DNA of 64,000 nt from Candidatus Iainarchaeum sp. GTDB lineage: Archaea > B1Sed10-29 > WALL01. Location: assembly GCA_023129115.1 (NCBI GenBank), contig JAGMCR010000017.1:18689-82688 (forward strand), written 5' to 3'. Positions 6,573 through 60,528 of the stretch are shown here, piece by piece. The position numbers were made by a program, and so were the translations under genes. The notes under the pieces are model-generated. The model saw nothing but the letters and a program-made list of their open reading frames with translations, ran no database searches and was not told where the DNA came from. Every line of letters begins with the position of its first letter. Positions within the stretch are counted from its first letter, which is position 1.

Positions 6573-9500
6573 GTGTTTTCTGTGAAAGAGACCAAGCTTA
6601 AAGTCCAAGAGGCAATGCAAAACGACGTGGGCAGGGGCATAGTCCGCATAGACAGCGAGACCCGCGACGCCCTCGGCCTCACGTCCGGCGACATAGTCAA
6701 GGTCAACGGCAAAACAGAGACCGCCGGCGTTGTCTGGCAGTGCTACCCACAGGACGAGGGCCTCAAAATCATCCGCATGGACGGCCTCATCCGCCAGAAC
6801 GCAGGCGTCGGCATCGGCGACTACGTCACCATCGAAAAAACAGACCCCAAGCCCGCCTCGAAAATCACGCTCGCCCCCACACAGCCCGTCCGCTTCTCGC
6901 CGGGCTTTGAGTCATACGTCCAGAAGCGCCTAATCGGCCGGCCACTGGCAAAAGGCGACCGCGTGCTCGTCGGCGTGTTCGGCACAAGCCTCGTGATGGT
7001 CGCCACAAAGACCACGCCCAAGGGATTCGTACAAATCACGCAGGAGACACAAATCGAGCTCAAGACAGAGCCGATCAAGGAAGTCATCGGCGTCCCCCAG
7101 GTGACGTACGAGGACATTGGCGGGCTCAAGGACGAGGTCCACAAGGTCCGCGAAATGATTGAAATCCCGCTCAAGCACCCAGAATTATTCGAGCGCCTCG
7201 GCATCGAGCCGCCGAAAGGAGTCCTCCTCCACGGGCCGCCCGGGACAGGCAAAACCCTTTTGGCCAAGGCAGTCGCCAACGAGAGCGACGCCAACTTCAT
7301 CTCCATCCAGGGCCCGGAAATAGTTTCCAAGTTCGTGGGCGAGGCAGAGGAGCGCCTCCGCCAAATCTTCAAGCAGGCCGAGGAAAACGCGCCAACAATA
7401 ATCTTCATCGACGAAATCGACGCCATCGCGCCCAAGCGCGGCGAGGTCCACGGCGAGGTAGAGAAGCGCATTGTGGCACAGCTGCTCGCGTCCATGGACG
7501 GCCTGCAGGCAAGGGGCAACGTCGTCGTAATCGCGGCGACGAACCGTGTCAACGCAATCGACGAAGCGCTCCGCAGGCCGGGCCGGTTCGACCGCGAAAT
7601 CGAATTGGGGGTCCCGGACCGCAAGGGCCGCAAGGAAATCCTCCAAATCCACACGCGCAACATGCCGCTTGATGGTGTGGACTTGGACAGGATGGCCGAC
7701 ATCACCCACGGCTATGTCGGCGCCGACGTGCAGTCGCTCGCCAAGGAAGCGGCCATGAAGACACTGCGCCGCCTCATCCCAAAGATGAACCTGGAGGGCG
7801 AGGACGGCATCCCGGCCGAGGTCCTCGAGAACCTAAGGGTAACGAAGGACGACTTCATGAACGCGTTCAGGGAAGTCCAGCCCAGCGCCTTGCGCGAAGT
7901 ATTGGTCGAGGTCCCGAACGTGAGGTGGGGCGACGTCGGAGGGCTCGACACGGTCAAGAAGCAGCTCAGGGAAGCCATTGAGTGGCCCATAAAAGACCCC
8001 AAGATGTTCACGCGCCTCGGAATTCGGCCCCCGAAGGGCCTTTTCCTGTTCGGCCCGCCCGGCAGCGGCAAGACGCTGCTCGCAAAGGCTGTCGCGACAG
8101 AAAGCGAGAGCAACTTCATTGTCGTGAAAGGCCCAGAGCTCTTGTCGAAGTGGGTTGGCGAGTCACTGCCATTCGACGAAGAAGTGCTTGTCATCAGGGA
8201 TGGCTTGCTTGAGAGGGAAGAAATAGGGAAACTTGTTGAATCCAGTGGGGGGGATGGGGTGATGGCGCCCACTGTCACGGATTCTCTCAAGGCAAAGAAC
8301 TCAAAAATTATTGATTTTATCCGCCATCCTGCTCCGCCGTACGTGGACGTACTCGTCACGGAAACAGGCAGGAAAGTGCGGGTCACGGGTGGGCACAGCG
8401 TTTTTGTTAAAGGTGGAAACGGTCTTGAAGAAGTTGTCGCAGAGGAAGTAAAACCAGGCGAAACAAGAATAGCAGTGCCAATGAAGTTAAAGCCAGTTGG
8501 CTCTGTTGTTGAAATCAATTTGTTGGACAGGTTGCAGAAAACCAAGTACGCGCTGTTCGTCAAGAATGGCCAAAAGCTTGTGAAGAAGGCAATTGAAAAG
8601 GTTGGGGCTGCAGAGGCAGCGAGGATCCTGGGCAAAGAGCGAAAGAATATTCATGCGTATGCAAAGAGAGCGGCGCTTCCAGTGGACTCTTTCGTAATGC
8701 TTATGGACCACGCCGCAATTAAATACAATCCGCGAGACCTGGTTATAAGCTCTCGCTATCGGAAGCATGAATTGCCAGCTGTCTTAAAGATGGACAAGGA
8801 TTTTGGCACGTTCCTTGGCCTGTGGGTTGCAGAAGGGTCTTACTTGTCCTACGGCGTCCGCATAAGCACTTCAGACTCCGAACTCCCTGTTGTTAAGCGG
8901 CTTTGCAAGAAGCTCTTCAAGAATCTCACTATTTATGAAAAACCAGACTCTAGGGGCAGAGACGTGATAATATCCTCGCTCCCCCTCAAGGCGGTTCTGG
9001 AAGAGGTGTTGAAGCTGAGGGGAGGGGCAAAAAACAAGCGCATGCCCACTGAAGTGCTTTCCGCACCTCTCCCCGCAGTGAGTGGTTTCCTCCGCGGTTA
9101 CTTCGGGGGGGATGGGTATTTCAGTGGGAAGTACGTGGAGGCGAGCACAGTCAGCCAAGACCTTGCAAACGATGTCATGATTGCACTCCAGTACTTTGGC
9201 ATAGTCGCCAGGTGCCGCGAGAAAAAAGAGTGGACAGGCAGCACGAGTTACAGGGTCCGGTTCCTTTGGACAGGTTTCCTGAAGAAATTCGCTGAAGAAA
9301 TTGGGTTCTTGTATGGCTCAAAGAACAAGCTATTGAATGCTTACCTCAAAAACATTAAACTAAAAAGAGTATTGCAGGCACCCAGCCAGCACATGGACGG
9401 CGACGTTTACTGGGACCTCGTGGTTGAGAAGACTCGTGAGCTTTACGAGCACCCATATGTATATGACATTGGGGTTAACCCAACACACCGTTTCATCGCA

Positions 9501-10112
9501 GGGTTTGGCGGCGTGCTCGTCCACAACAGCGAGCGCGGCGTCCGCGAGATATTCCGCAAGGCCCGCCTCGCGGCTCCCGTGGTAATCCTGTTCGACGAGA
9601 TTGACGCGCTCGCGCCGAAGCGGGGGATGCACAGCGGCTCTGTGGTCACCGAGACCGTCGTGAACCAATTGCTGACCGAGCTGGACGGCATCGAGGAGCT
9701 GAAGGACGTCGTGATTCTCGCGACGTCGAACCGGCCCGACATAGTGGACCCGAGCCTGCTGAGGCCGGGGCGCTTCGACCGCATGATTTTCGTGCCCGCG
9801 CCTGACGAGGAGTCGCGCCTCGCTGTCTTCGAGGTGCACACCAAAAAAATGCCGCTCGCGAAGGACGTGAAGCTCAAGGAGCTCTCCGAGGCCACACAAG
9901 GATTCTCGGGCGCGGACATCGAGGGGGTGTGCCGCGAGGCCGCGATGAACGCATTGCGCCGCGACAAGAAGTCCAAGGAAGTCACGAAAAAGGACTTCGC
10001 CGGCGCGCTGAAGGCAGCGAGGCCATCAATCCAGGAAGAGGACCTGAAGCGCTACCGCGGGTTCATGGAAGAGCACAAGTCGAGCATCGACACCGCGAGC
10101 TACATCGGCTAA
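6573..10112 (+). CDS. cdc48: CDC48/VCP AAA+ ATPase carrying an in-frame intein in the D2 domain
   Basis: N-terminal CDC48 domain, D1 Walker A GPPGTGKT and D2 Walker A GPPGSGKT. The extein is interrupted between KWVGE and [13 protein letters not shown]. Confidence 0.9.
8163..9527 (+). mobile_element. intein (455 aa) with a LAGLIDADG homing-endonuclease domain inside cdc48
   Basis: Starts with Ser1 (SLPFDEE...), ends with ...VLVHN followed by +1 Ser. LAGLIDADG-like blocks [10 protein letters not shown] and [12 protein letters not shown] are present, and the extein is reconstituted precisely. Confidence 0.8.
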
Positions 10113-10693
10113 GTCAAGTACGGCAGCAACAAGTAGCCAGCCGCTGCAATCGCCAGGAACCAGACAAGCGGGTTCCACTGCAATACTTTGTTGCCGTCCA
10201 GCGGCGGGAATGGGATCAGGTTGAAGGCGGCCAGGAAAAAGTTTATGTACGCCCCCCAGTCCCCGACAACCGAGACGAGCGTGTTGCTGGAATAACTCAA
10301 GGCAAGGAACACCACTCCCACGGCCAGGTTGATTACCGGCCCCGTGACCGCGATTAGGCCGGACTCCCGGAGGGTGAGCCTCTTGCCGCCAATCATGACC
10401 GCGCCAGGAGCCGCGAAAATCAGGCGCCCCCCGGTCATTATCGCCATTCCCAAAGCGAGAGCCAGTCCCTGCCACCACATCTTGAAGAAAGCGATGCACC
10501 CGAACTTCTTTGCAACCCACCTGTGGCCCAGCTCGTGGAAGATGAACCCCGTGCCCAGCGTGAGGAGTATGATGGGGAAGCTCGTGGTCAACGCGGGGAG
10601 GAGGCCGTGCGTGTACACGGACGCCATCGAAAACGCGAGGCTAAGCGTGACCCACGAAATCAGTATCTGGATTAGCTCGCTGTTTTGCATCAA
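10109..10693 (-). CDS. site-2 protease family (M50) intramembrane metalloprotease
   Basis: HELGH zinc motif within a TM helix, [10 protein letters not shown] (LDG motif), six TM segments. Confidence 0.7.
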
Positions 10694-10744
10694 CCCTTAA
10701 ATACGAGTTAACACAATAAATAACTTACTAAAGGGGGAGAGAGA

Positions 10745-10921
10745 ATGAGTAAAGACCTTTGGAAAGACAGTGCTGCGCAAGTGTCCATGGAACTGATTGT
10801 GGTGCTTGCCGCAGTCCTCGCCGTAGCGCTGCTGGCTGTTTCGTCCCTACGGGACACGGCAGCGGACGCCGAGAAAATCGGCGGAAAAACCGCCAAAAAA
10901 ATCATGAAGGAGCTGAAATGA
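10745..10921 (+). CDS. pilin-like protein with a class III (archaeal type IV pilin) signal peptide, 58 aa; absent from the ORF track because it is under 60 aa
   Basis: MSKDLWKDSAAQ|VSMELIVVLAAVLAV: short charged leader, then Q, then a hydrophobic helix with Glu at +5. A GGAG-type RBS precedes it, and its TGA overlaps the next ATG. Confidence 0.55.
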   Translation: MSKDLWKDSAAQVSMELIVVLAAVLAVALLAVSSLRDTAADAEKIGGKTAKKIMKELK

Positions 10922-11104
10922 ATGGGGAGAGGAATTCTTGAGGACAACCGCGGGCAAGTGTCGGCAGAGCTCATCGTCATCATCGCCGCTTTGATGGCAA
11001 TGGCGCTGTTCTTCGTCGGCAACCTCCAACAAACGGTGAAAAACTCCAGCGAGACCATGAACGCGAAGACCAGCGAAGTCCTGAAGAAAATCGAAGACTG
11101 GTGA
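10922..11104 (+). CDS. pilin-like protein with a class III signal peptide (60 aa)
   Basis: MGRGILEDNRGQ|VSAELIVIIAALMA, i.e. the RGQ motif with E at +5. Confidence 0.6.
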   Translation: MGRGILEDNRGQVSAELIVIIAALMAMALFFVGNLQQTVKNSSETMNAKTSEVLKKIEDW

Positions 11105-11478
11105 CTGCAATGCGGGGCCAGGTATCGCTCGAGTTCATGGTAGTGCTAGCCGTTTTCCTGGCGGCCCTGGGGGTCTGGCTCGCCGGGGTAGGCAACGCCA
11201 GCCACGCCATCGACGCAGCGCTCGGCGCGAAGCAGGCCGAGCTCGCCGCGGAGCGCCTCGCCTCCACAATCAACGCGGTGTGCGTCATGGGCGACGGCAA
11301 CTCGCTGGACGTGGAAGTGATAATCCCGGGAGAGGCAGAGCTTACCGAGGGCATGTCGCTGCACTGGAACAACAAGACGTTCAAAAAACTCGTTTACTGC
11401 GGGTCCGAGGGCCTAACGCTTTCCGGGAGACAAAAGCTCACTGTCACGAACGACAACGGCTTCATACGCATAGCGTGA
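11101..11478 (+). CDS. pilin-like protein with a class III signal peptide (125 aa)
   Basis: MTAMRGQ|VSLEFMVVLAVFLAAL; overlaps the previous stop (ATGA). Confidence 0.6.
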   Translation: MTAMRGQVSLEFMVVLAVFLAALGVWLAGVGNASHAIDAALGAKQAELAAERLASTINAVCVMGDGNSLDVEVIIPGEAELTEGMSLHWNNKTFKKLVYCGSEGLTLSGRQKLTVTNDNGFIRIA

Positions 11479-11800
11479 ACACGACTTTCTCGTAGTCCAG
11501 CCCGGGCGTCACCGCGGTGCGCGTGACCGACGCGCACTTTTCGCCAGCACCTGCCCGGCCAATCTTTTCCCGCAGCGCCGCAAGGCACGTCGAGTTGTGC
11601 TCGCACTTCTTTTTCATCGCAATTTGCGCGTAGTCGCCGGCCTGCTTGTACAGCACGACGTCGCTGTAGTCCTCCATCGTGATGGACGAGAGCGCTGTGA
11701 TGAACGCCGCGAAGCAAAGCACTGCCACCAATGCCTCGAGGCTGAACACGAACCCCCTACCAGACCGCCAGCACACCGACTTCACCCCCCTCTTCGCCAA
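11462..11800 (-). CDS. putative pilin-like protein (N-terminal class III-like signal RSGRGFVFSLEALVAV)
   Basis: Convergent with the + strand pilin genes. Hydrophobic N-terminal helix after a basic leader with E at +5/+6. The start codon is uncertain; a GTG start is possible. Confidence 0.4.
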   Translation of the reverse strand: MAKRGVKSVCWRSGRGFVFSLEALVAVLCFAAFITALSSITMEDYSDVVLYKQAGDYAQIAMKKKCEHNSTCLAALREKIGRAGAGEKCASVTRTAVTPGLDYEKVVFTLCV

Positions 11801-12155
11801 GGAACACGAGCCGCTTCACAACAAGTTTCGCCCCCTCCTCGGGGGGTGGCATCGAGTTGATGCCACCCCCCAATTCCCTGTCGCCAGAAATGCTGTAGTT
11901 GCCGTGGCAGTACTCTGCCTCCTGCCCGAGCTTGGCGGTGTCGATTGTCTGCGGCACCACCCTGCCCACGCTTCTGTCGAACTGGGCGAGGCACTTCGGG
12001 TCATTTATCAGGCGGTCGCTCGCGGCGATGAGCCTCGCCTGCCCCTCTGCGGTGGAGTGCATGCCCAGTGTGGAGCCAACCACCAAGTGCGTCCACAGGA
12101 GGCACATCTGCACCAGCAGCAGCACGAGGAAGAACGCTATGGAAGCGTCAATCAT
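11757..12155 (-). CDS. putative pilin-like / membrane-anchored small protein
   Basis: Internal Met of ORF 11757-12308 (the upstream Arg-rich extension looks spurious). It begins MIDASIAFFLVLLLV, preceded in frame by RGQAW. Confidence 0.35.
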   Translation of the reverse strand: MIDASIAFFLVLLLVQMCLLWTHLVVGSTLGMHSTAEGQARLIAASDRLINDPKCLAQFDRSVGRVVPQTIDTAKLGQEAEYCHGNYSISGDRELGGGINSMPPPEEGAKLVVKRLVFLGEEGGEVGVLAVW

Positions 12156-12399
12156 CCAGGCCTGCCCCCTGCTCGCCAATGTACCACCTCCCGTACGACG
12201 GGAACACGCTGGAGTTGGCCGACCTGCCCTTGCCGAGCGCGGCGACCGCCTGCTCCTGGACCGCGCGCGTGCCCCTTTCCATCCTCTCGCGCAGCGCCTC
12301 GCCCCCAAGCCCTTCGGCTGCCCGGGAGTGCGCGTCCATGACGATTGCCACGATGGCGAGGACCATCATCACGGCCACCATTGCCTCAAGCGTATTCAT
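12148..12399 (-). CDS. putative pilin-like small protein (83 aa)
   Basis: N-terminus MNTLEAMVAVMMVLAIVAIV resembles a processed type IV pilin N-terminal helix with E at +5. Confidence 0.35.
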   Translation of the reverse strand: MNTLEAMVAVMMVLAIVAIVMDAHSRAAEGLGGEALRERMERGTRAVQEQAVAALGKGRSANSSVFPSYGRWYIGEQGAGLDD

Positions 12400-12856
12400 G
12401 GCTGCACCCCCTTGGGATTAAGTAAATGCCTTTGCTGCTCCCAACAGTGATTGTCGCGCCAATCGCCTCGTGCTCGTCGCCGTGCACCACGACAATCTTG
12501 TTCGGCAATACCTTGATGTCGGGCTCGAACCCTTGCGGCGGCTCGCCCAGCAATTTTTGGTATTCAGGGCCATGCGTATGGCCGTACCACGGCTCGGCCC
12601 CGATGGCCCGCATCTCGCTGGCCCACTCGCCCAGCGCTTTTCCAACGGCTTTTTCGCCGCGCGGCGCAGAGTATTCCACGGTGCGCCAGAACGATTCCTC
12701 AAAGTCCTGCTCCTTCACCGTGATTGCCTGCTGCTCGAGAAAAAACTGTTTTGTCTGCCTTATCCCTGCTGCCTCGCGCTGGTACAGGCCGAGCGCATGG
12801 AACGCAGTAGGCACAAAGGACAGCAGTACCAAAAATGCTACGATGCCTCTCCTCAT
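12386..12856 (-). CDS. secreted hypothetical protein (Sec signal peptide)
   Basis: Start at MRRGIVAFLVLLSFVPTAFHA, preceded by GGAG. The longer ORF to 13084 has an implausible N-terminus. Confidence 0.5.
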   Translation of the reverse strand: MRRGIVAFLVLLSFVPTAFHALGLYQREAAGIRQTKQFFLEQQAITVKEQDFEESFWRTVEYSAPRGEKAVGKALGEWASEMRAIGAEPWYGHTHGPEYQKLLGEPPQGFEPDIKVLPNKIVVVHGDEHEAIGATITVGSSKGIYLIPRGCSHEYA

Positions 12857-12987
12857 CTCCCTCTCCCCACTTATTGTTTGGGGGGAGCAGGCATTTATCG
12901 CTTTCGGTCTGTGGAGTACTTTTCTGCCAGCCCCTAACCCGTTTTGGCTATAAAAGCCTTTTATTCCAAACCGCACAATAGCTAAGC

Positions 12988-13431
12988 GTGTTGTTCCGTA
13001 ACCCTTCAAAGGAGGACCTGCAAGCCATTGCTGCTTTGCAGAATGAGGCATTTCCCGATTCCGCTTTTTCTGAAGAAGAAACAATAAACATAGTCTCAGC
13101 CATCTTCAATCGTTCCACTCCCCGGACATCGTTTGTGGCCATGGAGAACGATAAAATGGCTGGGGTTGTCCTCGCCGAGTTCAGGGAGTGGTGGTACCCC
13201 CCTAATCTTGGCTACGTTTACGCGCTTGCAGTTCACCCAGACCACCAAGGAAAAGGCTTGGGCAAGGAGCTGCTGGAAAAAACCATAAACACGTTCAAGT
13301 CCATGAACGCAACAAAAGTAGAAATCGCGTGCGAAGCCAAGAACGAGAAGGCCCTCAATCTCTACAAGAAGCGCGGCTTCCTTCCAGACCACTTCCTCCT
13401 CCACCTCCCACTTACAGAAAAGAAGGAGTGA
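12988..13431 (+). CDS. GNAT family N-acetyltransferase (GTG start)
   Basis: Acetyl-CoA binding motif HQGKGLGKELLE and a C-terminal NLYKKRGF. Confidence 0.8.
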   Translation: MLFRNPSKEDLQAIAALQNEAFPDSAFSEEETINIVSAIFNRSTPRTSFVAMENDKMAGVVLAEFREWWYPPNLGYVYALAVHPDHQGKGLGKELLEKTINTFKSMNATKVEIACEAKNEKALNLYKKRGFLPDHFLLHLPLTEKKE

Positions 13432-26791: not shown

Positions 26792-28078
26792 ATGCAACAG
26801 GAATGGCTCGCAAAAAAACTCGTCAACTACACGCTCGGAATCGGGCAGAAAGAAAACACGGAAGGCCTGCGAAAGGCCGAGCGAAAATACGGCAAAAAAG
26901 TCCGCACGCTCCTCAAGAAGAAAAAAATCACTGCCACCAGGCGCAACGCCGCCATGCTCGACGAGCTCAGCAAAGTGGACTACGGCCCGCTCTTCGTAAA
27001 AAAAGGAAAGAGCTACGTCCCCAAGCCCACGGTCGGCCACTCCGTGATAATCGCGTTCAACGCGGCAAACAAAAAATATGCCGAAGCAGTCCGCCGCGAG
27101 TGCCTCCGCAATGGGGCGCACGCCCTCATGCTCGAGCGCAGCACCAAAGCAATCCGCGAGGCCTACCAGCTCTCGCCCATGGGCGCAATCCGCGAGCTCT
27201 CGCCAATCAGCGCCGCCCTCCACTCGACAGCCGACTACTACATCAACCTCGAGGCCATCGAGAACGAGTTCTGGAAAAAAGGAATCAATCCAGCCAAGTT
27301 CATGGCCGCAGCGCCGTCCAGCATGAAGCTCCACGAAATCCGGGACAAGCGCATGCAGCGCTGGTGCTACGTTGGCTGGCCCCACCCCCAAATCGCGAAA
27401 GAGCTGGGGTTGCCCGCAGCCAAGTTCAAAAGAATAGTCGACGGCTCCATCGAAGAGTCCTTCACGCCGCGCATGAAAAAGCTCGTCGACGGCTACTACC
27501 ACGCCCTCAAGGGCTCCAGCAAAATCCACATCGTCCACGACGACGGCACTGACCTAAAGTTCTCGGTGCGCGGCCGCCGCTTCATGCGCGACGACGCAGT
27601 CCTCGGCGCCGAGGACATCCGCAACAAGGACGTGGGCATGAACATTCCCGGCGGGGAAATCTTCACCGCGCCACACGAGTACAGCGCTAACGGCATACTC
27701 AAAATCCCGAAGAACATAATCCCCGGCCACGGCCTCGCCGAGGGAATCGAGCTCTTCTTCGAGAAGGGGAACGTCGTCGACTACGGCGCCAGAAGGCACC
27801 GCGACTACCTGACAAAGTTCTTCGCCGAGAACACGGGAGAGTGCCGCCGCATCGCGGAGCTCGGCATCGGCTGCAACTCAAGGGCTGACTTCACGAACGG
27901 CTACATCATCGTGGACGAAAAAATCAAGGGCACCCTCCACATCGCAATCGGGTGGAACATCGGGTACGGCGGCAAGAACAACGCGTCGTCGCACCTCGAC
28001 TTCATCAAGCCCATGTACAAGGGAAGCCTCTACGCGGACGGCGCCTTGGTCATGGACAAGGGAAAGCTGGTGGCGTGA
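26792..28078 (+). CDS. M29-family aminopeptidase (AmpS/aminopeptidase T-like)
   Basis: 428 aa with NIPGGEIFTAPHE and GTLHIAIGWN motifs. A TTTATTAA box lies 25 nt upstream, consistent with a leaderless transcript. Confidence 0.65.
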   Translation: MQQEWLAKKLVNYTLGIGQKENTEGLRKAERKYGKKVRTLLKKKKITATRRNAAMLDELSKVDYGPLFVKKGKSYVPKPTVGHSVIIAFNAANKKYAEAVRRECLRNGAHALMLERSTKAIREAYQLSPMGAIRELSPISAALHSTADYYINLEAIENEFWKKGINPAKFMAAAPSSMKLHEIRDKRMQRWCYVGWPHPQIAKELGLPAAKFKRIVDGSIEESFTPRMKKLVDGYYHALKGSSKIHIVHDDGTDLKFSVRGRRFMRDDAVLGAEDIRNKDVGMNIPGGEIFTAPHEYSANGILKIPKNIIPGHGLAEGIELFFEKGNVVDYGARRHRDYLTKFFAENTGECRRIAELGIGCNSRADFTNGYIIVDEKIKGTLHIAIGWNIGYGGKNNASSHLDFIKPMYKGSLYADGALVMDKGKLVA

Positions 28079-29424
28079 TGCTCGACACTCTCGAGAAGGC
28101 AGTCACTTCCAAGGCGGACTTCGTCGAGATAGGCGCCTCAATAGGCCACATGACCCGGCTCCACCTGCGCGAGAAGGAGGTCGAGACAGTCTCGTCCGGC
28201 TCCGCGTCCGGCTTCGGGGTCCGCGCGCTCTACAAGGGCGCGTGGGGGTTCGCCTACACGTCCGACGAAAAGAAATTGTGGGAGACAGTGGAGCGCGCGG
28301 TCAAGCTCTCCCGCGCCTCTTCCCGCAAGCCCATCGGCGCGTCCCTCGCAGGCAAGAGCGACGCCCGCGACAGCACCAGAGTCAAGGTAAAGAAGCACCC
28401 CCAGGACTTCAGCCTCGACGAGAAAGTCAAGCTCTGCCTCGAGCTCGCCGGCGACAGGCCCAAGGGCATAACGGCCCGCGACCTAGAGTACGCCGACGGC
28501 TGGGGCGAGGGCTACTACGTCAACAGCGAGGGCGCGGCACTCGAGTACTTCCCGGTGCGCTCGTTCCTCGCGGTCTCCGCCTACTCAAAGAAAAACGGCG
28601 AGCTGCTGAAGGCCAAGGACGCGGCCGCCGGCCTTAAAGGGGTCGAGCTCCTGGACGGCAAGCACGCCATGGTAAAAAAAGTCTTTGACAAGGCCCTGCT
28701 CCTCCAGAAGGCCACGCTCCCGCCGAAGGGAAAGACGCGGGTCGTCATCGACTCCGAGCTGGCTGGGGTCTTCGCCCACGAAATGGTGGGCCACGCCGCC
28801 GAGGGCGACACCATCGCCAACGGCAAGAGCATCCTCGGCGGAAAGCTCGGCCGGCTCCTCGGCTCGAGGCACGTCAGCATCTCGGACGACCCCACGCTCC
28901 CCAGGCTATTCGGCTCGTACCCGTACGACGCCGAGGGCATCAAAGCCCAAAAAACCAGGATTGTCGAGCGCGGCCGCATAACAAACTTCCTCAACTCCCG
29001 CGAGTCGGCGTCACGCCTCAAGACCGAGTCGACCGGCAATTCCCGCGCAGAGTCCACGGGGCACTTCCCCATCGTGCGCATGAGCAACACGTTCTTCGAG
29101 CCGGGCGACCGCTCCGACGACGAGCTCTTCGAGGGCGTGAACGGAATCTATGCCCTCGGAACGAAGGGCGGCGTGACCGAGCCCCACACGGGGTACTTCC
29201 AGTTCGCTGCCGAGTACGGCTGGCTCGTCAAGAACGGCGAGAAGACCAAGCCGCTCCGCGACATCACGCTCGTCGGCCACTTGGTCAACACCCTGCGCAA
29301 CGTCGAGGCCTGCGGCAAGAAGTCCAGGCTCGGCCACCCCGGCTTCTGCGGCAAGGCCGGCCAGAACCTCCCGGTGAGCGACGGCGGGCCGCACATAAGA
29401 ATCAAGGGGGTGCTCGTCGGGTGA
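28078..29424 (+). CDS. tldD: TldD family zinc metalloprotease
   Basis: HExxxH motif FAHEMVGHAAEGD and the GxC C-terminal region; TGATG overlap with the upstream gene. Confidence 0.85.
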   Translation: MLDTLEKAVTSKADFVEIGASIGHMTRLHLREKEVETVSSGSASGFGVRALYKGAWGFAYTSDEKKLWETVERAVKLSRASSRKPIGASLAGKSDARDSTRVKVKKHPQDFSLDEKVKLCLELAGDRPKGITARDLEYADGWGEGYYVNSEGAALEYFPVRSFLAVSAYSKKNGELLKAKDAAAGLKGVELLDGKHAMVKKVFDKALLLQKATLPPKGKTRVVIDSELAGVFAHEMVGHAAEGDTIANGKSILGGKLGRLLGSRHVSISDDPTLPRLFGSYPYDAEGIKAQKTRIVERGRITNFLNSRESASRLKTESTGNSRAESTGHFPIVRMSNTFFEPGDRSDDELFEGVNGIYALGTKGGVTEPHTGYFQFAAEYGWLVKNGEKTKPLRDITLVGHLVNTLRNVEACGKKSRLGHPGFCGKAGQNLPVSDGGPHIRIKGVLVG

Positions 29425-30659
29425 TTGACCCCATTCTCGCCAAGGCCGCGAAGAAATGCGACCAGGCAGAGCTCTACTACGCGGAGTCCCACTCGCTCCT
29501 GAGCCGCAGCTCGCTCGACAAGCTCGAGGCGTGCAAGTCCGCCGAGGACCGCGGGTTCGGCCTCCGTGTCGTGTGCGGCGGCCGCATCGGCCACTCATTC
29601 TTCAGCCGGGAAGAGGACGCGGACCGCGCCATCTCGGGCGCAGTCAAGTCGGCAAAGCTCTCGCACACCGAGGGCTATTCCCTTCCCGGCAAGGCAAGCT
29701 ACCACAAAAGAAAATGCTTCGACCCCAAGCTAAAAGCACTTGACGAGGAAAAGCTGGTTGACATGGTCCTGGCCTCTATGGACGCGACCGCGGAAAGCGC
29801 CGACCCAATCCAGGCCGAGGTCGAGGCGCGCTACGGCACGGTGGAAATAGCCAGCACCGAGGGCGTCTACGCAAAGGACACGGAGTCACTGTTCTCGCTC
29901 TACTGCGTCGGCAAGAAAAAGGAGAGCATGGGCGACGAGTCCTTTTCCTCAAGGAAGCTCACCGACTGCGCCGTGAGGGTAGGGCGCGTCGCGGGCGAGC
30001 TGGCCGAGCAGGGCGTGGGCGCCTCCCCCGTGGACTACGAGGGGACGGTCACCCTGCACCAGGACGTCATCGGCTCGTTCTTCGGCGAGTCAGTCGTCCG
30101 AAACCTCAACGGCGAGCTCGCGAGGCGCGGCAAGGCAAAGTGGGCGGACAGGCTCGGCAAGAAAGTCACCGGCGACTTTACGCTCACCGACGACCCCACC
30201 ATCGACTGGGGAATCGGCACCATGCCGTTCGACGACGAAGGCGTCCCGACGACAAAGAAGGACATGATAAAAAACGGCGTGCTGAAGCAGTTTTATTACG
30301 ACACGCGCACCGCGAACCTCGCTGGCGCGAAGGCCACGGGCAACGGCTTCCGCGGTGGGCCAGTGTCGCCGCCCACCATCAGCATGACGAACGTCGTAAT
30401 CTCTCCGGAGTCCCGCGGGAGCGGCGGCGGCATGTTCGTTCGCGACCTGATGGGCTACCACAACATGAACCCCGTGACGGGCGACTTCTCGCTCGACATC
30501 ACACACGCAATCCTGAACGAAAAGCCGGTGCGGGGCTGCGTGCTGACCGGCAATGTCTTCGAAATGCTCGAGAAGGGCGAGTGGAACGGCCCGACCGAGA
30601 CGCGGGCATGGCTGACCTCGCCGCAGCTCTCGTTCGAGGCAAAAGTGGTGGGGAAATGA
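29421..30659 (+). CDS. pmbA: PmbA/TldE family protein (TldD partner)
   Basis: Paralogous to tldD but lacking HExxxH; GTG start overlapping the tldD stop (GTGA). Confidence 0.8.
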   Translation: MIDPILAKAAKKCDQAELYYAESHSLLSRSSLDKLEACKSAEDRGFGLRVVCGGRIGHSFFSREEDADRAISGAVKSAKLSHTEGYSLPGKASYHKRKCFDPKLKALDEEKLVDMVLASMDATAESADPIQAEVEARYGTVEIASTEGVYAKDTESLFSLYCVGKKKESMGDESFSSRKLTDCAVRVGRVAGELAEQGVGASPVDYEGTVTLHQDVIGSFFGESVVRNLNGELARRGKAKWADRLGKKVTGDFTLTDDPTIDWGIGTMPFDDEGVPTTKKDMIKNGVLKQFYYDTRTANLAGAKATGNGFRGGPVSPPTISMTNVVISPESRGSGGGMFVRDLMGYHNMNPVTGDFSLDITHAILNEKPVRGCVLTGNVFEMLEKGEWNGPTETRAWLTSPQLSFEAKVVGK

Positions 30660-31030
30660 AGTGGAAAAAAGAACCTGATGTCCAGGCCATGATGGAGCGC
30701 CTCGTCGCAGAGGCAGGGCTTTCCCACGTCCGCCCGAACCGCGTGTTCTGCGTGCGGGGCGAGGGGTCGAAGAGCCGCGCGGTCGCGCGCATCTGGTCAC
30801 TGCCACGCGTGTTCCAGCAGTGCCTCGAAATCGAGGCCGCCTACGTAATCGAGGTAATGGACAAGAAGTGGGACCGCCTCTCGGACGAAGAAAAGGAAAA
30901 GACAATAATCCACGAATTGCTCCACATTCCCAAAACGTTTTCGGGCGCACTGGTGCCGCACAGCTGCTTCGGCAAGCGCATGGTCGGCGCGAGGCAGGTC
31001 GAGAAAATCTGGAAAAAGATGAAGGAGTAG
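30656..31030 (+). CDS. small putative zinc metallopeptidase (HExxH; SprT/WLM-like)
   Basis: 125 aa with IIHELLHIP; ATGA overlap with pmbA. It is the internal Met of track ORF 30140-31030. Confidence 0.5.
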   Translation: MKWKKEPDVQAMMERLVAEAGLSHVRPNRVFCVRGEGSKSRAVARIWSLPRVFQQCLEIEAAYVIEVMDKKWDRLSDEEKEKTIIHELLHIPKTFSGALVPHSCFGKRMVGARQVEKIWKKMKE

Positions 31031-32701: not shown

Positions 32702-35700
32702 ATGCCGAAGAAAAGAGTGGCAAAGAAGAAACCGGTGAAGAAGAAAGCCGCGGCAAAGAAAAAAGCTCGGGGGGCGCCCACGGCAAAGCCGGCGGCGCCC
32801 CCCAAAGCAGCGAAGCCGCGGGCAAAGCCTTTGACGAAGACCACACAGTCCCTCCCCATCACCATCAAGTCCACGGCCGAAATCAAAATCCCTGCCAAGA
32901 CAGTGGATCAGGTCCTCGGCCAGGAAAAGGGCGTCGAGATAGTCAAGAAGGCTGCGCGCCAGCGGCGCAACGTCTTCCTCCTCGGCGAGCCTGGCACTGG
33001 CAAGTGCGTCGCCCCGGAAACCTTAATAACACTTGCCGGTGGGGAAGTACTGCCTGCAGAGTCTGTGTTCAATCGAGCAAAAACAAATGGCATTATCGTT
33101 ACACAGGATTCAGACAGAACATTACTTTCTGACACGGGCTTAAGGACGTTATCCATTAACAGGAAAAACGTAAAATTAACAGAGGAAGACGTGCTCTATG
33201 CAGCAAGGTTCAAGAATCTAAAGCAATTATTCAGAATCAAGACTTCTCTTGGTTCTGAGGTAACTCTTACGGATAATCATCCATTGCTCACTATAACAAA
33301 AAGGGGTGAGTTGAAGTGGGTGCCTGCCAAGGATTTGTCAAAGGGGGGTAGGATAGCTAGTGCGAGAAGCGTCACATTCCCGGAGATAACTGACATAGAT
33401 TTCATTGACGACCTTGATGGAGACATTACCTTATGCATACTGGATAGAGAGTTCGGTCTAGAGGAGGCAAAGAAGAAAAAAGTATCTTATGACAAGATAA
33501 GCCACATCAGATACAAAACAAGTGTTACTGATTCCTCCTCAAAAAAAGTCAAGGTGGTGGGCAACTGGAGCGAGGAACTAGGCAGATTCTTAGCGTATAT
33601 GCTTTCAGAGACGTCTATAACAAGGGATAGGAACATTATTTTCACAAACAACGACAAAGCAGCAGTAACAGACTTCGCGTTTTTGGCTCACTCACTCTTT
33701 GGAATTAGATTCAACGTAGCGAAGAGGAAAGAGCATTGGTATGCTCAAGCCAGTTCTTCATCACTTTGCCGTTTTTTGAACCAAGTCTTTGACGTAGCGT
33801 TATCCTCTCCCAACAGGTCTCACATCACAAAATTCCCGCGCCGGATGTTGTCCGCACCACTGCCAGTCCTTGCCGCGTTCATAAGGACTTACTATGATAT
33901 GGAAGGCCATGTGCAAAAGCCGCGCAGGCGGTGTATGGAACTCTGTAGTGGAAGTAAAGAATTTACCAGGGTTATGCAGATTGCACTGCTAAGGTTTGGC
34001 ATAATATCGAGATTAAAGACAAGATACAATGCTGCTACAAATACCAAGGGCAAGAAAAGGAGAAAATATTATTACCTTTTCATATTCGGCGCTGAAAATC
34101 TAAGGAAGTTCAGGGGTTCCATTGGTCTCCACAGCGGTAGGAAGAGAGAACGCCTTGAAAGGTCTATTGTTATAAAGCCCAATCCAAATTTGGATGTAGT
34201 CCCCAATATTTTCGAGGACTTAAAGTTTTTGAAGGAAAAACTAGAGTTCAAGAATACTGACGTGACAGATTACCCTGCTACATTTTCTCGTTATGTCCAT
34301 GGAAAAAGAGAGCCTAGTAGGAGGGGGCTTGCCGATATAACTGAAAAAATTGCTAACGTGTACTTAAGCAAGCAGAAAGTGGCAGGAGTCTATGATGAGG
34401 AAGTAGAAGACACAATCATAAAGTTGTCCTGTCTTACAGATTCTGATATATACTGGGACAAGATTGAGAGCATAACAAAAACCAAAAGTAGCGATTATGT
34501 CTATGATTTCACGGTTCCAACAAACCACAGTTTCTTGGCTGGCAATATCCTGCTGCATAACTCCATGCTTGGCCTCGCGATGGCCGAGCTCCTGCCGGTG
34601 AGCAAGCTGCAGGACGTCCTTGTCTACCCCAATCTTGGCGACCCGAACCAGCCAAAAATAAAAACCGTCAAGGCCGGCAAGGGCCTAAAAATTGTCGAGG
34701 AAGAGACCAAGAAGGCCATGGAGGGCGGCAGCTCCAAGCAGATGGCCGGCTTCATCGCGTTCCTCTTCCTCTTGTCAATCCCGTGGGTATTGCTCTGGCT
34801 TGGGTGGCTCAGCGAGCTGCTCGCCGCGGCGTGCCTCATCGTGGCGGGCATGCTCGGAATCGGCGTAGTCATCGGGATGCAGATGCGGCCCCGCACAGAC
34901 AACACGGCGCCAAAGCTCCTGGTGGACAACTCCCGCCAGAAGCACGCGCCTTTCATCGAGGCGACTGGCGCCAAGGCCGGCGCGCTCTTGGGCGACGTGA
35001 AGCACGATCCGCTCCAGTCCGGCGGCCTCGGCACTCCCGCCCACCTCCGGGTCATCGCGGGCATGATCCACCGCTCGCACCTCGGCGTATTGTTCATCGA
35101 CGAAATTGGCACGTTGTCAGCAAAGTCCCAGCAGGAATTATTGACCGCGATGCAGGAGAGGAAGTTCTCAATCACCGGGCAGAGCGAAATGTCGTCAGGA
35201 GCAATGGTGCACACTTCGCCCGCGCCGTGCAATTTCGTGCTCGTCGCCGCGGGCAACCTGCTCGACCTGAAGAACATGCACCCCGCATTGCGGAGCCGCA
35301 TCCGCGGCTACGGCTATGAGATCTACCTGAACGAGAAGATGCCGGACACTCCGGAGAACCGCGTGAAAATCGCGCAGTTCATCGCGCAGGAAGTCCAAAA
35401 GGACGGCAAAATCCCGCACTTCTCGCGTGCGGGCGTCGAGGCCGTCATCCGCGAGGCGCAGAAGCGCGCTGGGAGGAAGGGCAAGCTGACCGTGAAGCTC
35501 CGCGAGCTCGGTGGGCTCGTCCGGGCCGCGGGCGACATCGCTCGCGCAGACGGCTCTGCGCTCGTCGAGCCGAAGCACATCAAGGCCGCGAAGAAACTGG
35601 CGCGCACGATGGAGCAGCAGCTCGCGGACCAGTACATCTCCCAGAAGAAGGAATACGAAGTCTTTTCAACAAGCGGCAAGAAAGTGGGCAAGGTAAACGG

Positions 35701-36265
35701 CCTCGCCATCATGGGCGACGGCGGCATTGTCCTCCCCATCGAGGCAGAGGTCGCGCCGGCGCACTCCAAGAGCGAGGGCAAGCTAATCGCGACGGGCAAG
35801 CTCGGCGAAATCGCGCGCGAGGCAGTCACCAATGTCTCCGCCATCGTGAAGAAGTACAAGGGCACTGACATCTCCCGCCGCGACATCCACGTGCAGTTCC
35901 TCCAGACCTATGAGGGGGTGGAGGGCGACTCGGCGAGCGTTTCGGTTGCCACAGCATTAATCAGCGCGCTCGAGGAACTGCCGGTGGACCAGAGCATTGC
36001 CATGACGGGCTCGCTTAGCGTGCGCGGCGAGGTCCTCCCGGTCGGGGGAATCACCCCGAAAATAGAGGCGGCAATCGGCGCGGGCATGAAGACAGTCATA
36101 ATCCCCGAGGCGAACAGGGACGACATCCTGCTCTCGCCCGAGGACTCCAAGAAAATCCGCATCATAACCGCGGCCAACCTCTATGACGTGCTCTCCAGCG
36201 TCCTGGCCAGCTCCAAGAAGAAGCCGGCCCTTTTGAAGAAAATCAAGCGCATCGTGAGCCGATAG
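32702..36265 (+). CDS. lonB: archaeal membrane-bound Lon protease (LonB) carrying an in-frame intein within the Walker A motif
   Basis: Lys-rich N-terminus; Walker A GEPGTGK is interrupted and resumes with [12 protein letters not shown]. Walker B LFIDEIG, a TM insert and protease motif GDSASV follow. Confidence 0.9.
33005..34561 (+). mobile_element. intein (519 aa) with LAGLIDADG-type homing-endonuclease blocks inside lonB
   Basis: Cys1 ([10 protein letters not shown]...), C-terminal ...ILLHN with +1 Ser. Blocks [10 protein letters not shown] and [11 protein letters not shown] are present, and the P-loop GTGKS is reconstituted on removal. Confidence 0.8.
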
Positions 36266-44320: not shown

Positions 44321-45724
44321 GTGATTATAATGAAGCGCCTACTACTGCTATGCCTGTTGCTCGCCAGCGTGTTCGCCGCGTCTCTCGGCACCACGTTCGA
44401 AATCGACCTGGGCGATCCCATAACTCTTTCTGGGTCTAACTTTGCGTTGGTCTCGGTCAATGTTTCCTTCATGCCCGGCCAGACTAGCTTCATTGTTGTT
44501 GACGTCGACGACGAAGAGCACACTATTGACTTTTTGGGTTACGTTGAGACTGATGGCTTCACAATCAAGTGGACCGACACGATGGTTGGGACCGGCGCGA
44601 CCAGCGCATACCTCCACGTCACCGAAATAGTCTCAATCTCTCTCGACACGAGTTTTACCCTCAACACTAAAACAACGCCCAAGGCGCGTTATGGCTCAAT
44701 GATGATTGAGCTGACCGAGACTTACCAAAGCTCCCTGCCTGGGGTGCCCTCGACAGCGACCGTAAAGATTGACGGCAGCGAGGAAACCATCGCCATCGGA
44801 GGGAACACTACTGCGGGAGACTACATACTCTCCGCCGAGTCAATTTCCTTCGGCTCTCCTGACGACGTCACTTTCTTGCTCAGCTCTCCCCCGGCAGAAG
44901 AAGCTCCTGAAGTAACGCCTACTCCAACCCCTGAGCCAACTCCCACCGCCACTCCAGAGCCGACACCAACTCCCGAGCCAGACAGCGGCACATCCACGCC
45001 CCAGGCAATTGGCGGCACATCCACTCCAACCCCAACTCCCGCACCGATGTTAATCGCAGCCCCCCGGGCAATCAGGGCAGTTCCGGTTGCCATCGTGGCT
45101 CCGGTCGCCAGCAGCACCGCGGTCACCGCCAAAATCCAGGCAACACGCATCGCGGAAACCACTTCCCAGGTTAGGGCGCACAGCGCGGCCGGCAACAAAA
45201 TCACTTACCAGGTCGAGGGCAACGCGACTTCACAAGGATACCTTCAAGTATCCAATGCGCCACGCAAGCCGAAGCAAGTCAAGTTCGACGGCGCGGAAAT
45301 CCCGGAGTGCAGCGTTTCGCTCCTGCAGACCTGCATCACCGCCATCCTGGGCGGCGGGGCCACAGAGGACTGCCTCTGCTGGACTTACAACGAGGCGGAC
45401 ACCCAAGTGGAAATCTTTTATCCGCACTCCGAGCACACGATTGAAATCGATTTCGGGGAAGAAGGCGAGGCGGCAACCCCCACCCCAACTCCAGAGCCTA
45501 CTCCAACCCCAACCGGGGAGTCGCCAACTGGCGACTCCCCCAGTGGCTCCGATGGCGAGTCCACAGACGGCGGCTCCACTCTGCTGTACATTGTTGTGGC
45601 ACTCGTAATCATTGTGCTCGCCGCAGGCGCGTTCTTCTTCCTCCGCAAGAAAAAGCCGCCGGCTCCTGAACTGGACTACACAAAAGAAAGCACCACCCAG
45701 CTTGACTACTCAAGCGAAGAGTAA
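44321..45724 (+). CDS. cell-surface protein with a Pro/Thr-rich linker and a C-terminal TM anchor
   Basis: Signal peptide, (TPTPEP)n linkers, and a C-terminal TM followed by RKKK. Confidence 0.6.
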   Translation: MIIMKRLLLLCLLLASVFAASLGTTFEIDLGDPITLSGSNFALVSVNVSFMPGQTSFIVVDVDDEEHTIDFLGYVETDGFTIKWTDTMVGTGATSAYLHVTEIVSISLDTSFTLNTKTTPKARYGSMMIELTETYQSSLPGVPSTATVKIDGSEETIAIGGNTTAGDYILSAESISFGSPDDVTFLLSSPPAEEAPEVTPTPTPEPTPTATPEPTPTPEPDSGTSTPQAIGGTSTPTPTPAPMLIAAPRAIRAVPVAIVAPVASSTAVTAKIQATRIAETTSQVRAHSAAGNKITYQVEGNATSQGYLQVSNAPRKPKQVKFDGAEIPECSVSLLQTCITAILGGGATEDCLCWTYNEADTQVEIFYPHSEHTIEIDFGEEGEAATPTPTPEPTPTPTGESPTGDSPSGSDGESTDGGSTLLYIVVALVIIVLAAGAFFFLRKKKPPAPELDYTKESTTQLDYSSEE

Positions 45725-52476: not shown

Positions 52477-53361
52477 ATGATAGAGGCTTTCTTCGCCGCA
52501 CTCCTTGGGATTGGTGCGCTCCTCTGCGGAGTTTATTCCTATTCCCACGACAGGAAAAACCTCTGGTTCCTCGCCGTGCTCCTCTCGACCTCGCTCCTCG
52601 CGCTAACGCAGTGGGAATACGCAGCCGGCTTCTTCCTCCTCCTGTTCGCGTCGCTGTGGGTGAAGAGCTTCTCCCGCTTCATCACCGCATCGATGTTCTC
52701 GGCAATCATGCTATCGTTCTTCTTCCTGAACGTATTCATCAACCACGACGTCGCCTTCCTCCCCGCCGTCGCGGTCGTCTCAGTGTTCAGCCTGTGCTTC
52801 CTCGCCATAATCGCGCTCTTCGAGGACAACCTCCGCAGGTTCCTGTTCTACTCCAACTCAATCCAAATCATTTTCGTCGTGCTTGACCTCGCGGTCGCAA
52901 AAATGCTGGGCAAGCTCGGCGCGCTCGGCACAATCCAAATCTTCAACTACTTCTTCGCGGGCTTCGCGCTCTTCTTCGCAATTGGCGTCCTAGCCATCGG
53001 CAAAACAAAAATCAGCGAGCTCGAGGGCTCGTACTACACCAGCAAGTGGAACGACATCGCCGCCACCATCGCCTGCCTCTCGCTCGCCGGCCTGCCCGCG
53101 TTCAACATGTTCGTCTCTGAATGGGCGCTCTTCACAGCGAGCTACGCCGTGATGCCAATCGTCACAATCCTCGGCATATTCGCCGCGCTCTTATTGTTCG
53201 TCATGTACTACAAATTGGTCTACCGCCTCCTCATCGGCGAAGGCGCCAAGGTACGCATCCCAAGGAGCATCACCGCCATGAACCTCGCGCTCGCCGCGCT
53301 CTGCATAATCCTGGGCGTCCTGCCCACGCTGCAGTTCACGCTGCTGGAGGCGTTAATGTGA
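52477..53361 (+). CDS. membrane subunit of a group-4 [NiFe] hydrogenase (short Mrp-antiporter/NuoL/M/N-like, EchA/MbhH-like)
   Basis: 294 aa with about nine TM segments; first gene of the hydrogenase operon. Confidence 0.55.
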   Translation: MIEAFFAALLGIGALLCGVYSYSHDRKNLWFLAVLLSTSLLALTQWEYAAGFFLLLFASLWVKSFSRFITASMFSAIMLSFFFLNVFINHDVAFLPAVAVVSVFSLCFLAIIALFEDNLRRFLFYSNSIQIIFVVLDLAVAKMLGKLGALGTIQIFNYFFAGFALFFAIGVLAIGKTKISELEGSYYTSKWNDIAATIACLSLAGLPAFNMFVSEWALFTASYAVMPIVTILGIFAALLLFVMYYKLVYRLLIGEGAKVRIPRSITAMNLALAALCIILGVLPTLQFTLLEALM

Positions 53362-53517
53362 CCGGCAAAATCGACCAGTACCTCTGCGGCGAAGACATGG
53401 ACGAGGCACTCGTCCTCCCAAAGCACTACGAGGAATTCTTCGACAAAAGCAAGCTCATGAAAACCCTGCTTGTCCTCACCGCACTATTGCTGATTGGGGG
53501 TGCGGCATGGCTCTGAT
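53359..53517 (+). CDS. small membrane subunit (52 aa, GTG start)
   Basis: C-terminal TM; overlaps both neighbouring genes; weak. Confidence 0.3.
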
Positions 53518-53911
53518 GAAGAAAAGCCCGTGGGTCGCCGTCTACAACGCCAGCTCGTGCAACGGCTGCGACCTCGAAGTCCTCGCCATGCTCACGCCGC
53601 GATACGACATCGAGCGCTTCGGGTGCCTCTGGCGCGACAGCCCCCGCCACGCCGACATCTTATTGGTCACGGGCATCGGCACGAAGCAGAGCGCCAAGCG
53701 CCTGAAGCGAATCTATGACCAGATGGCGAGCCCCAAGTACGTCATTGCAGTGGGCTCGTGCGCCATCAGCGGCGGCGTGTTCAAGGAAGGCCACAACTTC
53801 GCGGGCCCAATCGACAAAATCATTCCAGTGGACGCCTATGTCCCGGGCTGCCCGCCGAGGCCCGAGTCAATAATCCTAGGCGTCGTGAAAGTCCTGGAGA
53901 AGATGAAATGA
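53507..53911 (+). CDS. [NiFe] hydrogenase small subunit (NuoB/EchC-like)
   Basis: Proximal-cluster ligands SCNGCD, GSCA and GCPP. Confidence 0.85.
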   Translation: MALMKKSPWVAVYNASSCNGCDLEVLAMLTPRYDIERFGCLWRDSPRHADILLVTGIGTKQSAKRLKRIYDQMASPKYVIAVGSCAISGGVFKEGHNFAGPIDKIIPVDAYVPGCPPRPESIILGVVKVLEKMK

Positions 53912-54186
53912 AGCGGCTGATAACCATCGCAGGAATCGACGAGGGAAAAGGAGTCCGCTTGGTCTACTTCTATGACTCCAACGGCAAGGTAACCACGACG
54001 GACACTCGCCTCCCCTACAACGGCTCCACCGAATCAATCTCCCCCGACTACCCGAGCGCCGAGTTCTACGAGCGGGAGATACACGACTTCTTCGGGATAA
54101 CCTTCACCGGCTGCCCCAACATCAACAAGCGCCTCTTCAAGGCAGAGGGCGACAAGAAAAAGCCGTTCCTGGGGGCGAGGAAGTGA
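53908..54186 (+). CDS. NuoC/EchD-like hydrogenase subunit (short)
   Basis: EFYEREIHDFFGITFTGCP matches the 30-kDa subunit family motif. Confidence 0.7.
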   Translation: MKRLITIAGIDEGKGVRLVYFYDSNGKVTTTDTRLPYNGSTESISPDYPSAEFYEREIHDFFGITFTGCPNINKRLFKAEGDKKKPFLGARK

Positions 54187-56178: not shown

Positions 56179-56492
56179 GTGAGGTGCTGGGCAACCTGCT
56201 CAGGAAGCCGTTCACGAGGCTCTACCCGTTCGAGAAGGAGGACGTGCCGCAGCGCTTCCGCGGCAACATCAAGTACTTCAGCGACAAGTGCATTGGCTGC
56301 CGCCTGTGCGAGAAGAACTGCCCGGCCAACGCAATCACCTTCCACAAAAAGGGCTGCATCGACTTCGACATGGGCAAATGCATCTATTGCGGGATGTGCG
56401 GCGACGTCTGCCCCACGCAGGCAATAGTCTATACAAATGACTACGAGCGTGCGGAAACAAGCAAGAAAAAAATCAAGCCCATCCAGTCCTAG
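56166..56492 (+). CDS. NuoI/EchF-like 2x[4Fe-4S] ferredoxin subunit
   Basis: Two CxxCxxCxxxCP motifs. Confidence 0.8.
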   Translation: MGVIGEVLGNLLRKPFTRLYPFEKEDVPQRFRGNIKYFSDKCIGCRLCEKNCPANAITFHKKGCIDFDMGKCIYCGMCGDVCPTQAIVYTNDYERAETSKKKIKPIQS

Positions 56493-56845: not shown

Positions 56846-56897
56846 GCCTCAACTTAGTGCGCAAAGCAATATAAAACTTCGCGACAGAACCACAATC

Positions 56898-57411: not shown

Positions 57412-60393
<2,982 letters not shown>

Positions 60394-60405
60394 TGCTCGG
60401 TCGCA

Positions 60406-60484: not shown

Positions 60485-60528
60485 GTCGGCCACCCAAGCA
60501 ACAATGGCCGTCTGAGAGAACACTAGCG

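Follow-up and report, generated by a model that had tools for sequence, protein, structure and literature searches.

The subject of this analysis is a cluster of small class III signal-peptide genes at 10745–12856 of a stretch of Candidatus Iainarchaeum sp. DNA (contig JAGMCR010000017.1), the whole 64,000 nucleotides (nt) of which are referred to as the window. Among the closest described systems is the Epd pilus of Methanococcus maripaludis, an adhesive pilus (PMC3875500, PMC4371748) with small pilins of 67–76 amino acids (aa) that carry Gln at +1 and Glu at +5 (PMC3875500). The processing sites of EpdA–E are RAQI, KGQV, KGQV, KGQL and KGQI respectively, and the prepilin peptidase EppA requires Gln+1 (PMC4371748). 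The architecture of clade 1, or system 1, comprises two platform genes, EppA, small and often stand-alone major pilins, and at least five minor pilins (PMC4858521; 10.64898/2026.04.22.720090), and system 1 has been reported in DPANN archaea (10.64898/2026.04.22.720090). Clade 1/system 1 pilins are in general distant from the ATPase/platform locus (PMC4858521; 10.64898/2026.04.22.720090); in M. maripaludis the pilus genes are spread over no fewer than four loci, the ATPase and platform genes lying separately from those of the pilins (PMC3875500), and Haloferax adhesion pilins are unlinked to pilB/pilC (PMC4371748). An origin in archaeal Epd-like systems has been proposed for the bacterial Tad system (PMC6668835; 10.64898/2026.04.22.720090), and the minor pilins and pseudopilins of bacterial type IV pili and type II secretion systems (GspK, PilX, FimU, PilV) also rank among the closest known systems. 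Set beside these, the locus is probably the pilin battery of an Epd-like (clade 1/system 1, Tad-related) archaeal type IV pilus of the Diapherotrites/Iainarchaeota.

Reading of the open reading frames (ORFs) together with gene calls resolved 10745–12856 into seven small genes in two convergent operons, listed here with the predicted cut marked by a slash:

10745–10921, + strand: g1, 58 aa, MSKDLWKDSAA/QVSMELIVV; PF04021 match at E 0.016 and 15.5 bits, below the gathering cut-off
10922–11104, + strand: g2, 60 aa, MGRGILEDNRG/QVSAELIVII; PF04021 match at E 3.6e-5 and 24.0 bits (cut-off 23.7)
11110–11478, + strand: g3, 122 aa, MRG/QVSLEFMVVL; PF04021 match at E 0.0013 and 19.0 bits; strict motif (defined below)
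11462–11478, no strand: g3 and g4 converge, their 3' ends sharing 17 nt; from ORF and gene-call coordinates
11462–11800, − strand: g4, 112 aa, ...RSGRG/FVFSLEALVAV; conserved leader; ratio of non-synonymous to synonymous changes (pN/pS) 0.25–0.34
11757–12179, − strand: g5, 140 aa, MASRG/QAWMIDASIAF; perfect GGAGGTG 5 nt before the TTG at 12179
12148–12399, − strand: g6, 83 aa, MNTLEAMVAV, leaderless; AGGGGGTG Shine–Dalgarno sequence, an upstream start codon being impossible
12386–12856, − strand: g7, 156 aa, MRRG/IVAFLVLL (MRRG/IVAFLVLLSFVPTAF); first gene of the − strand operon; ORF 12386–13084 of 232 aa

The initial annotation had described six such genes. Its three small + strand ORFs are present (g3 has 122 aa from 11110 or 125 aa from an alternative start at 11101), as are the small − strand ORFs with N-terminal hydrophobic helices at 11462–12399 and the 17-nt convergent overlap. 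The set has a seventh member, however: the supposed Sec-secreted neighbour is g7, which shares 14 nt with the next − strand gene and is predicted to fold like a minor pilin. The 183-aa − strand ORF (11757–12308) holds a real gene, g5, but one of 140 aa from the TTG at 12179, or 132 aa from the ATG at 12155 chosen by the gene callers. The − strand gene order is g7, g6, g5, g4, with neighbours overlapping head-to-tail, and Shine–Dalgarno-like sequences were found at most of the seven gene starts.

Each of the seven proteins has a pilin-type hydrophobic helix at its N-terminus. In all except g6, this helix of about 20 hydrophobic residues follows a short charged leader ending in Gly, Ala or Ser. 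A strict motif, defined as [GAS]Q.[ST].E close to the N-terminus with a run of 12 or more hydrophobic residues behind it, occurred three times among all ORFs of the window, always in the adjacent genes g1–g3, and not once in 30 shuffles. The same three genes match Pfam PF04021 (Class_IIIsignal, formerly DUF361), although the gathering score was exceeded by g2 only. The leaders had originally been read as ending in Gln; the cut is instead placed before this residue because Glu falls at +5 only in that register, the position it has in EppA substrates (PMC3875500, PMC4371748). Gln+1 and Glu+5 are thereby predicted for g1 (A/QVSME), g2 (G/QVSAE) and g3 (G/QVSLE), with processing sites AAQV, RGQV and RGQV, which match those of EpdA–E (PMC4371748).

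The predicted mature form of g1 is about 47 aa, a helix and short tail without a globular domain, and that of g2 about 49 aa. From these sequences, g1 is a candidate major (Epd/Flp-sized) pilin and g2 a candidate paralogue of it; g2 also matched Flp1_like (E 9e-4, 19.1 bits, below the cut-off of 33.5), and a search of PDB sequences with g2 gave no match. The larger g3 has conserved Cys58/Cys97 and a predicted β-sheet head. Its AlphaFold2 (AF2) model, built on a shallow alignment of 4–5 sequences as was that of g7, has a helix at 4–60 followed by β-strands (mean predicted local distance difference test, pLDDT, 77.6), and g3 is a candidate minor pilin belonging to a wide family. The g7 model (helices 3–66 and 68–84 plus a β-sheet, pLDDT 86.9) has a predicted minor-pilin- or pseudopilin-like fold, and both models show the lollipop shape of pilins; Foldseek searches of the PDB with both models returned no significant neighbour. 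The g4 protein has four extracytoplasmic Cys, of which one pair is jointly lost in two relatives (L007 and L008), which suggests a disulfide. Together, the Cys pairs conserved in the sequences of g3, g4 and g5 fit extracytoplasmic heads.

The cluster was found beside the same gene for an M50 intramembrane metalloprotease in 10 further DPANN contigs (L003–L012), whose guanine–cytosine (GC) content ranges from 29% to 57%. All seven genes are present in L003, L004, L006–L008 and L010 and a partial set in L005, L009, L011 and L012; seven of the 10 contigs thus have a complete or almost complete set. Proteins of L003–L008 are about 33–88% identical to those of the window, with g1 at 64–88% across six relatives; L009–L012 are labelled as one Nanobdellati archaeon and three Iainarchaeum metagenome-assembled genomes (MAGs), with GC as low as 29%. 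The tail-to-tail overlap recurs, at 17–42 nt, in six relatives (L003, L004, L007, L008, L010, L011). Relative to the window, each gene had a pN/pS within 0.16–0.69, synonymous sites were close to saturated, and indels were in frame; the ranges were 0.16–0.37 for g1, 0.40–0.67 for g2, 0.32–0.41 for g5 and 0.47–0.56 for g6. Judged by these comparisons, all seven genes are under purifying selection. Non-coding − strand ORFs, which the initial annotation had named as a finding that would count against it, are ruled out, because these ORFs are conserved, their indels are in frame and their pN/pS is below 1.

The relatives also bear on the leaders. In the low-GC relatives (L010–L012) all seven genes carry [KR][GA]/ leaders. 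The g4 leader SG[KR]GFVF is kept in L003–L009, and L010–L012 have A/IVFTME, G/FLLSLE and G/INFSIE. For g5, which has Gln+1, Asp at +6 and a conserved Cys pair, seven homologues were found: the L010 protein reads MVHMKG/QINMMDAS, and those of L007 and L008 begin at M(L)DAS without a leader. In g6 the initiator Met occupies +1 and Glu stays at +5; the L010 orthologue has the full leader MTTLKYKG/QITMEAIIA, and those of L006 and L009 are leaderless too.

In two relatives, further proteins are encoded between the operons. At 2457–4538 of L009 there are three: one of 191 aa with Pilin_N (7e-8), one of 170 aa, and one of 322 aa that has 4Fe-4S binding domains. At 2964–5900 of L006 there is a PQQ/BamB-like β-propeller protein of 978 aa, which matches Pilin_N weakly. 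By analogy, these inter-operon class-III-signal proteins fit a PilY-like adhesin.

The g3 family extends well beyond this lineage. When the g3 profile was run in a full HMMER scan, 190 cluster representatives (clusters at 50% identity) were matched at E<=1e-3, mostly of about 125 aa and with the common motifs M[RK][GA]Q.S.E and VC.MG.GN; PF04021 matched 27 of 49 aligned members (E<=0.01). Against PDB sequences, the best two matches of the family profile were archaellins, weak at E ~0.08–0.09. Related loci were sought with an 11-sequence alignment. In three MAG loci, g3-family genes stand in a tight same-strand cluster with pilus components: L013 and L015, labelled Micrarchaeota, and L014, labelled Falkowbacteria. 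All three encode a long prepilin peptidase of the EppA type (Peptidase_A24 plus Arc_PepC), which two tiny Gln+1 pilins adjoin in L013 and L014, and L014 has two T2SSF (TadC/FlaJ-like) genes. This arrangement corresponds to the clade 1/system 1 architecture (PMC4858521; 10.64898/2026.04.22.720090). By hhalign, g3 matched Micrarchaeota operon genes at 97% and the N-terminus of g4 a Micrarchaeota 134-aa gene at 87%, over 27 columns only. The original pilin-like reading is supported by PF04021, by leaders in relatives, by the predicted folds of g3 and g7, and by g3-family loci with A24 and Arc_PepC.

Two observations concern these loci themselves. Inside the pilin/peptidase operons of L013 (8774–9934) and L014 (6304–7500) lies a gene for a 386–398-aa membrane protein of the TctA family (tripartite tricarboxylate transporter-like), possibly an uncharacterised pilus accessory membrane component. 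The L014 contig (JAFCBY010000013.1) is labelled Candidatus Falkowbacteria, a bacterium of the candidate phyla radiation (CPR), and carries an intein-bearing ORF and two T2SSF genes in addition to the archaeal-type A24 plus Arc_PepC peptidase and the class III pilins with Gln+1. Either this is DPANN DNA that was mis-binned, or an Epd-like pilus locus has been transferred between domains. The intein-bearing ORF, which lies upstream, was considered as a pilus ATPase and not adopted: Pfam gave intein, LAGLIDADG and helix-turn-helix matches only.

Comparison with the M. maripaludis Epd system (EpdA–E, EppA) showed a shared leader ending in Gly or Ala, Gln+1, Glu+5 and the PF04021/DUF361 domain. Also shared are tiny headless proteins of major-pilin size together with at least five larger minor-pilin-like proteins, the placement of pilins away from the motor locus, and, for the relatives of g3, loci in which two TadC-like genes accompany a long A24 peptidase of the EppA type. 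Unlike in Epd, there is no detectable sequence similarity outside the N-terminal helix, mature g1 and g2 are shorter (47–49 vs 54–63 aa), g4 and g7 lack Gln+1, and g6 lacks a leader. The arrangement as two convergent operons beside an M50 protease also differs, as does the DPANN host, in which peptidase and motor were not found within ~73 kb.

With the bacterial Flp/Tad system (Flp, TadE/TadF/TadG, TadV) the locus shares single-helix pilins of about 50 aa, Glu+5, a set of larger pseudopilins and, in g3, Phe at +6. However, the Flp motif (G/XXXXEY) is absent, with no Tyr at +6 and with the Flp1_like match of g2 below cut-off, no tad genes are adjacent, and the context is archaeal. Haloferax volcanii PilA1–6 and the Sulfolobales adhesion pilins are similarly not beside pilB/pilC (PMC4371748), but those are PibD substrates with a Pilin_N/DUF1628 N-terminus and without Gln+1 or Glu+5.

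Several results weigh against an Epd-like pilin battery. The pilus itself is a prediction from genes and structure models. The ~73 kb around the locus contained no detected gene for a T2SSE/FlaI ATPase, a T2SSF/FlaJ platform or an A24 peptidase, a span covered by Pfam searches of ~46 window ORFs, precomputed scaffold Pfam calls and a 9-kb leftward extension (L016) that holds housekeeping genes; nor was an ATPase, platform or prepilin peptidase found in the 20-kb stretches of the relatives. Among the individual genes, g1 has Ala-Ala in place of [KR]-Gly ahead of the cut, the acidic residue of g4 sits at +6, g7 lacks such a residue and is readable as a Sec signal-anchor, and the leader is missing from g6 and, in some relatives, from g5. 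Pfam and NCBIfam searches of g4–g7 gave no match, and hhalign of g5–g7 against Micrarchaeota genes at matching positions detected no profile similarity; orthology of g5–g7 with those operon genes is not claimed, because only the N-terminus of g4 was matched.

The missing machinery had also been remarked on in the initial annotation, which called the battery orphan. Separation from the motor stands over the ~73 kb, and an EppA-type peptidase with two platform genes beside the pilins was seen in none of the Iainarchaeota loci examined. The implied unusualness does not stand, since such separation is the documented norm for Epd, system 1 and Haloferax; by analogy with those systems, a motor-less pilin locus is the ordinary arrangement for such archaeal pili.

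If the Epd-like assignment is correct, the prepilins would enter the membrane with their N-termini on the inner side, and a prepilin peptidase, by analogy an EppA-type long A24 enzyme, would cut the basic leader before Gln+1 (g1, g2, g3, g5) or Phe/Ile+1 (g4, g7). The g6 protein would be made leaderless, already in register with Glu+5. A FlaI/TadA-like ATPase and a TadC-like platform encoded elsewhere would then polymerise the subunits. The headless g1 and/or g2 (47–49 aa mature) would build the shaft of the filament, as EpdE and Flp do, and g3–g7, with small disulfide-bearing heads, a priming or tip complex of minor pilins. The pilus would serve adhesion to surfaces or other cells.

The irregularities of the − strand genes would fit a reading in which only g1–g3 are filament subunits and g4–g7 are N-terminally anchored accessory or envelope proteins left out of the fibre, such as ArlF/ArlG- or PilN/PilO-like stator or alignment components, or unrelated surface proteins. 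Neither g4 nor g7 has the Gln+1/Glu+5 combination, and g7 has neither Gln+1 nor an acidic residue; family matches are lacking for all four, g6 is leaderless, as is g5 in L007 and L008, similarity to known pilus-operon genes does not extend past the N-terminal helix, and Foldseek was negative. Nevertheless, g4–g7 orthologues in L010–L012 have [KR][GA]/ leaders, the leaderless g6 keeps the Glu+5 register, and g4–g7 co-occur strictly with g1–g3 in the 10 related contigs. At least five minor pilins are moreover typical of system 1 (PMC4858521). This division of the locus is considered unlikely.

The high ratio of minor-type to major-type subunits (5 to 2) would fit proteins that form, in place of a long adhesive fibre, a short pseudopilus or a complex close to the membrane that serves in secretion, DNA uptake or cell–cell contact. 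Such a structure would also suit DPANN archaea, which are commonly host-attached (PMC11291902, PMC8784108). This is highly improbable, as the locus contains no secretin-independent secretion cargo or DNA-processing genes, the characterised homologous Epd system makes adhesive pili (PMC3875500, PMC4371748), and relatives have β-propeller adhesin-like insertions.

The remaining alternative centres on the neighbouring protease, given here with the regulatory stretches of the two operons:

10109–10693, − strand: M50/site-2-protease (S2P) intramembrane metalloprotease, 193–194 aa; Pfam PF02163, E 3.2e-12; context only, no demonstrated component
10694–10744, no strand: divergent intergenic region between the M50 gene and g1; A/T-rich TTAAATA and AATAAATAA boxes
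12857–12987, − strand: region 5' of the − strand operon; Shine–Dalgarno sequence GGGGAGAGGGAG; A/T-rich boxes CTTTTATAG, GATAAATG and ACAATAAG in GC-rich surroundings

The substrates of S2P enzymes include signal peptides and those type II transmembrane helices whose ectodomains are short. The M50 enzyme might cleave single-pass type II proteins of the locus for quality control, for peptide release or as a substitute for prepilin peptidase, and g1 and g2 have the topology of S2P substrates. Its active-site motifs are intact (HELGH and the second motif are readable in the translation), and it adjoins g1 in divergent orientation at each of the 11 loci, a junction kept even in L011, where the other M50 flank differs, and in L006, where a gene lies between M50 and CDC48. 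The tie is nevertheless rated low because the whole CDC48–M50–...–DUF7121 backbone is syntenic in the lineage, so the adjacency may be inherited. Micrarchaeota g3-family loci have an A24 peptidase and no M50, [KR]G/Q..E is an A24 substrate signature, and transporter and immunity genes are lacking. An M50-linked or secreted-peptide system is very improbable.

A variant in which the Iainarchaeota battery is coupled to M50 and partly freed from prepilin peptidase, with M50 processing, clearing or releasing pilins, is likewise very unlikely. It draws on the translation of g6, and of g5 in some genomes, in the mature register (Met+1/Glu+5), from which partial escape from the peptidase would follow. 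If true, it would be a route of pilin maturation or turnover not described for any type IV filament system. The secreted-peptide or bacteriocin system that had originally been offered as an alternative is rejected, there being no transporter or immunity gene and the N-termini being pilin-type.

Each operon is preceded by possible regulatory sequences. A Shine–Dalgarno-like AAAGGGGGAG stands immediately 5' of the g1 ATG. The A/T-rich boxes between M50 and g1 may act as a promoter, and we infer a putative promoter from the similar boxes upstream of the − strand operon. The bacterial promoter/terminator scan was uninformative, as its sigma-70 model is not applicable to archaea.

The Epd-like pilin battery, as the preferred assignment, gives a function to seven genes annotated as 'hypothetical' and defines the g3-like family (~190 clusters) as a class III signal/pilin-like family of DPANN archaea. 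It also suggests that Diapherotrites/Iainarchaeota, small archaea of an under-studied DPANN lineage, probably make an Epd/Tad-like adhesive filament, which bears on their attachment to surfaces or partners. New here are the seven-gene convergent organisation conserved in Iainarchaeota, the wide unannotated g3 family, the leaderless pilin-like member and the M50 neighbour; the last two, g6 and the conserved M50 gene, are minor peculiarities that lend themselves to testing. The filament system itself is of an already known sort, dispersed pilin loci are documented for Methanococcus Epd, and the current picture of archaeal type IV filaments is unchanged.

Other features were observed elsewhere in the window. 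Inteins with LAGLIDADG domains interrupt the CDC48/VCP-type AAA ATPase (6573–10112) and the LonB protease (32702–36265); the CDC48 orthologue of L003 (720 aa) is intein-free. Peptidase genes form a run at 26792–31030: an M29 aminopeptidase is accompanied by TldD and PmbA as a pair, and the end of PmbA is overlapped, in a different frame, by an ORF that has a 'phage metallopeptidase' domain. The 467-aa ORF at 44321–45724, whose sole match was weak and to a repetitive acidic protein family (Trypan_PARP), may encode a low-complexity surface protein.

Towards the right-hand end, 59894–64000 is 100% identical to another scaffold of the same sample (scaffold_234, L017), and only from 59894 on. The point of divergence falls inside the pyruvate phosphate dikinase gene (57412–60393), which encodes 993 aa in the window vs 1032 aa on L017, and may be an assembly chimera or a strain recombination point. 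Repeats of about 64 nt, 92–95% identical, at 62028–62094, 62105–62168 and 63491–63552 flank an M20 peptidase gene (62176–63402) and were detected as secondary blastn hits. The genes at 52477–57332 resemble an energy-converting hydrogenase or Mrp system (Proton_antipo_M, Complex1_49kDa/NiFeSe large subunit, NADHdh and a HycI maturation protease), a notable metabolic capacity for a DPANN genome.

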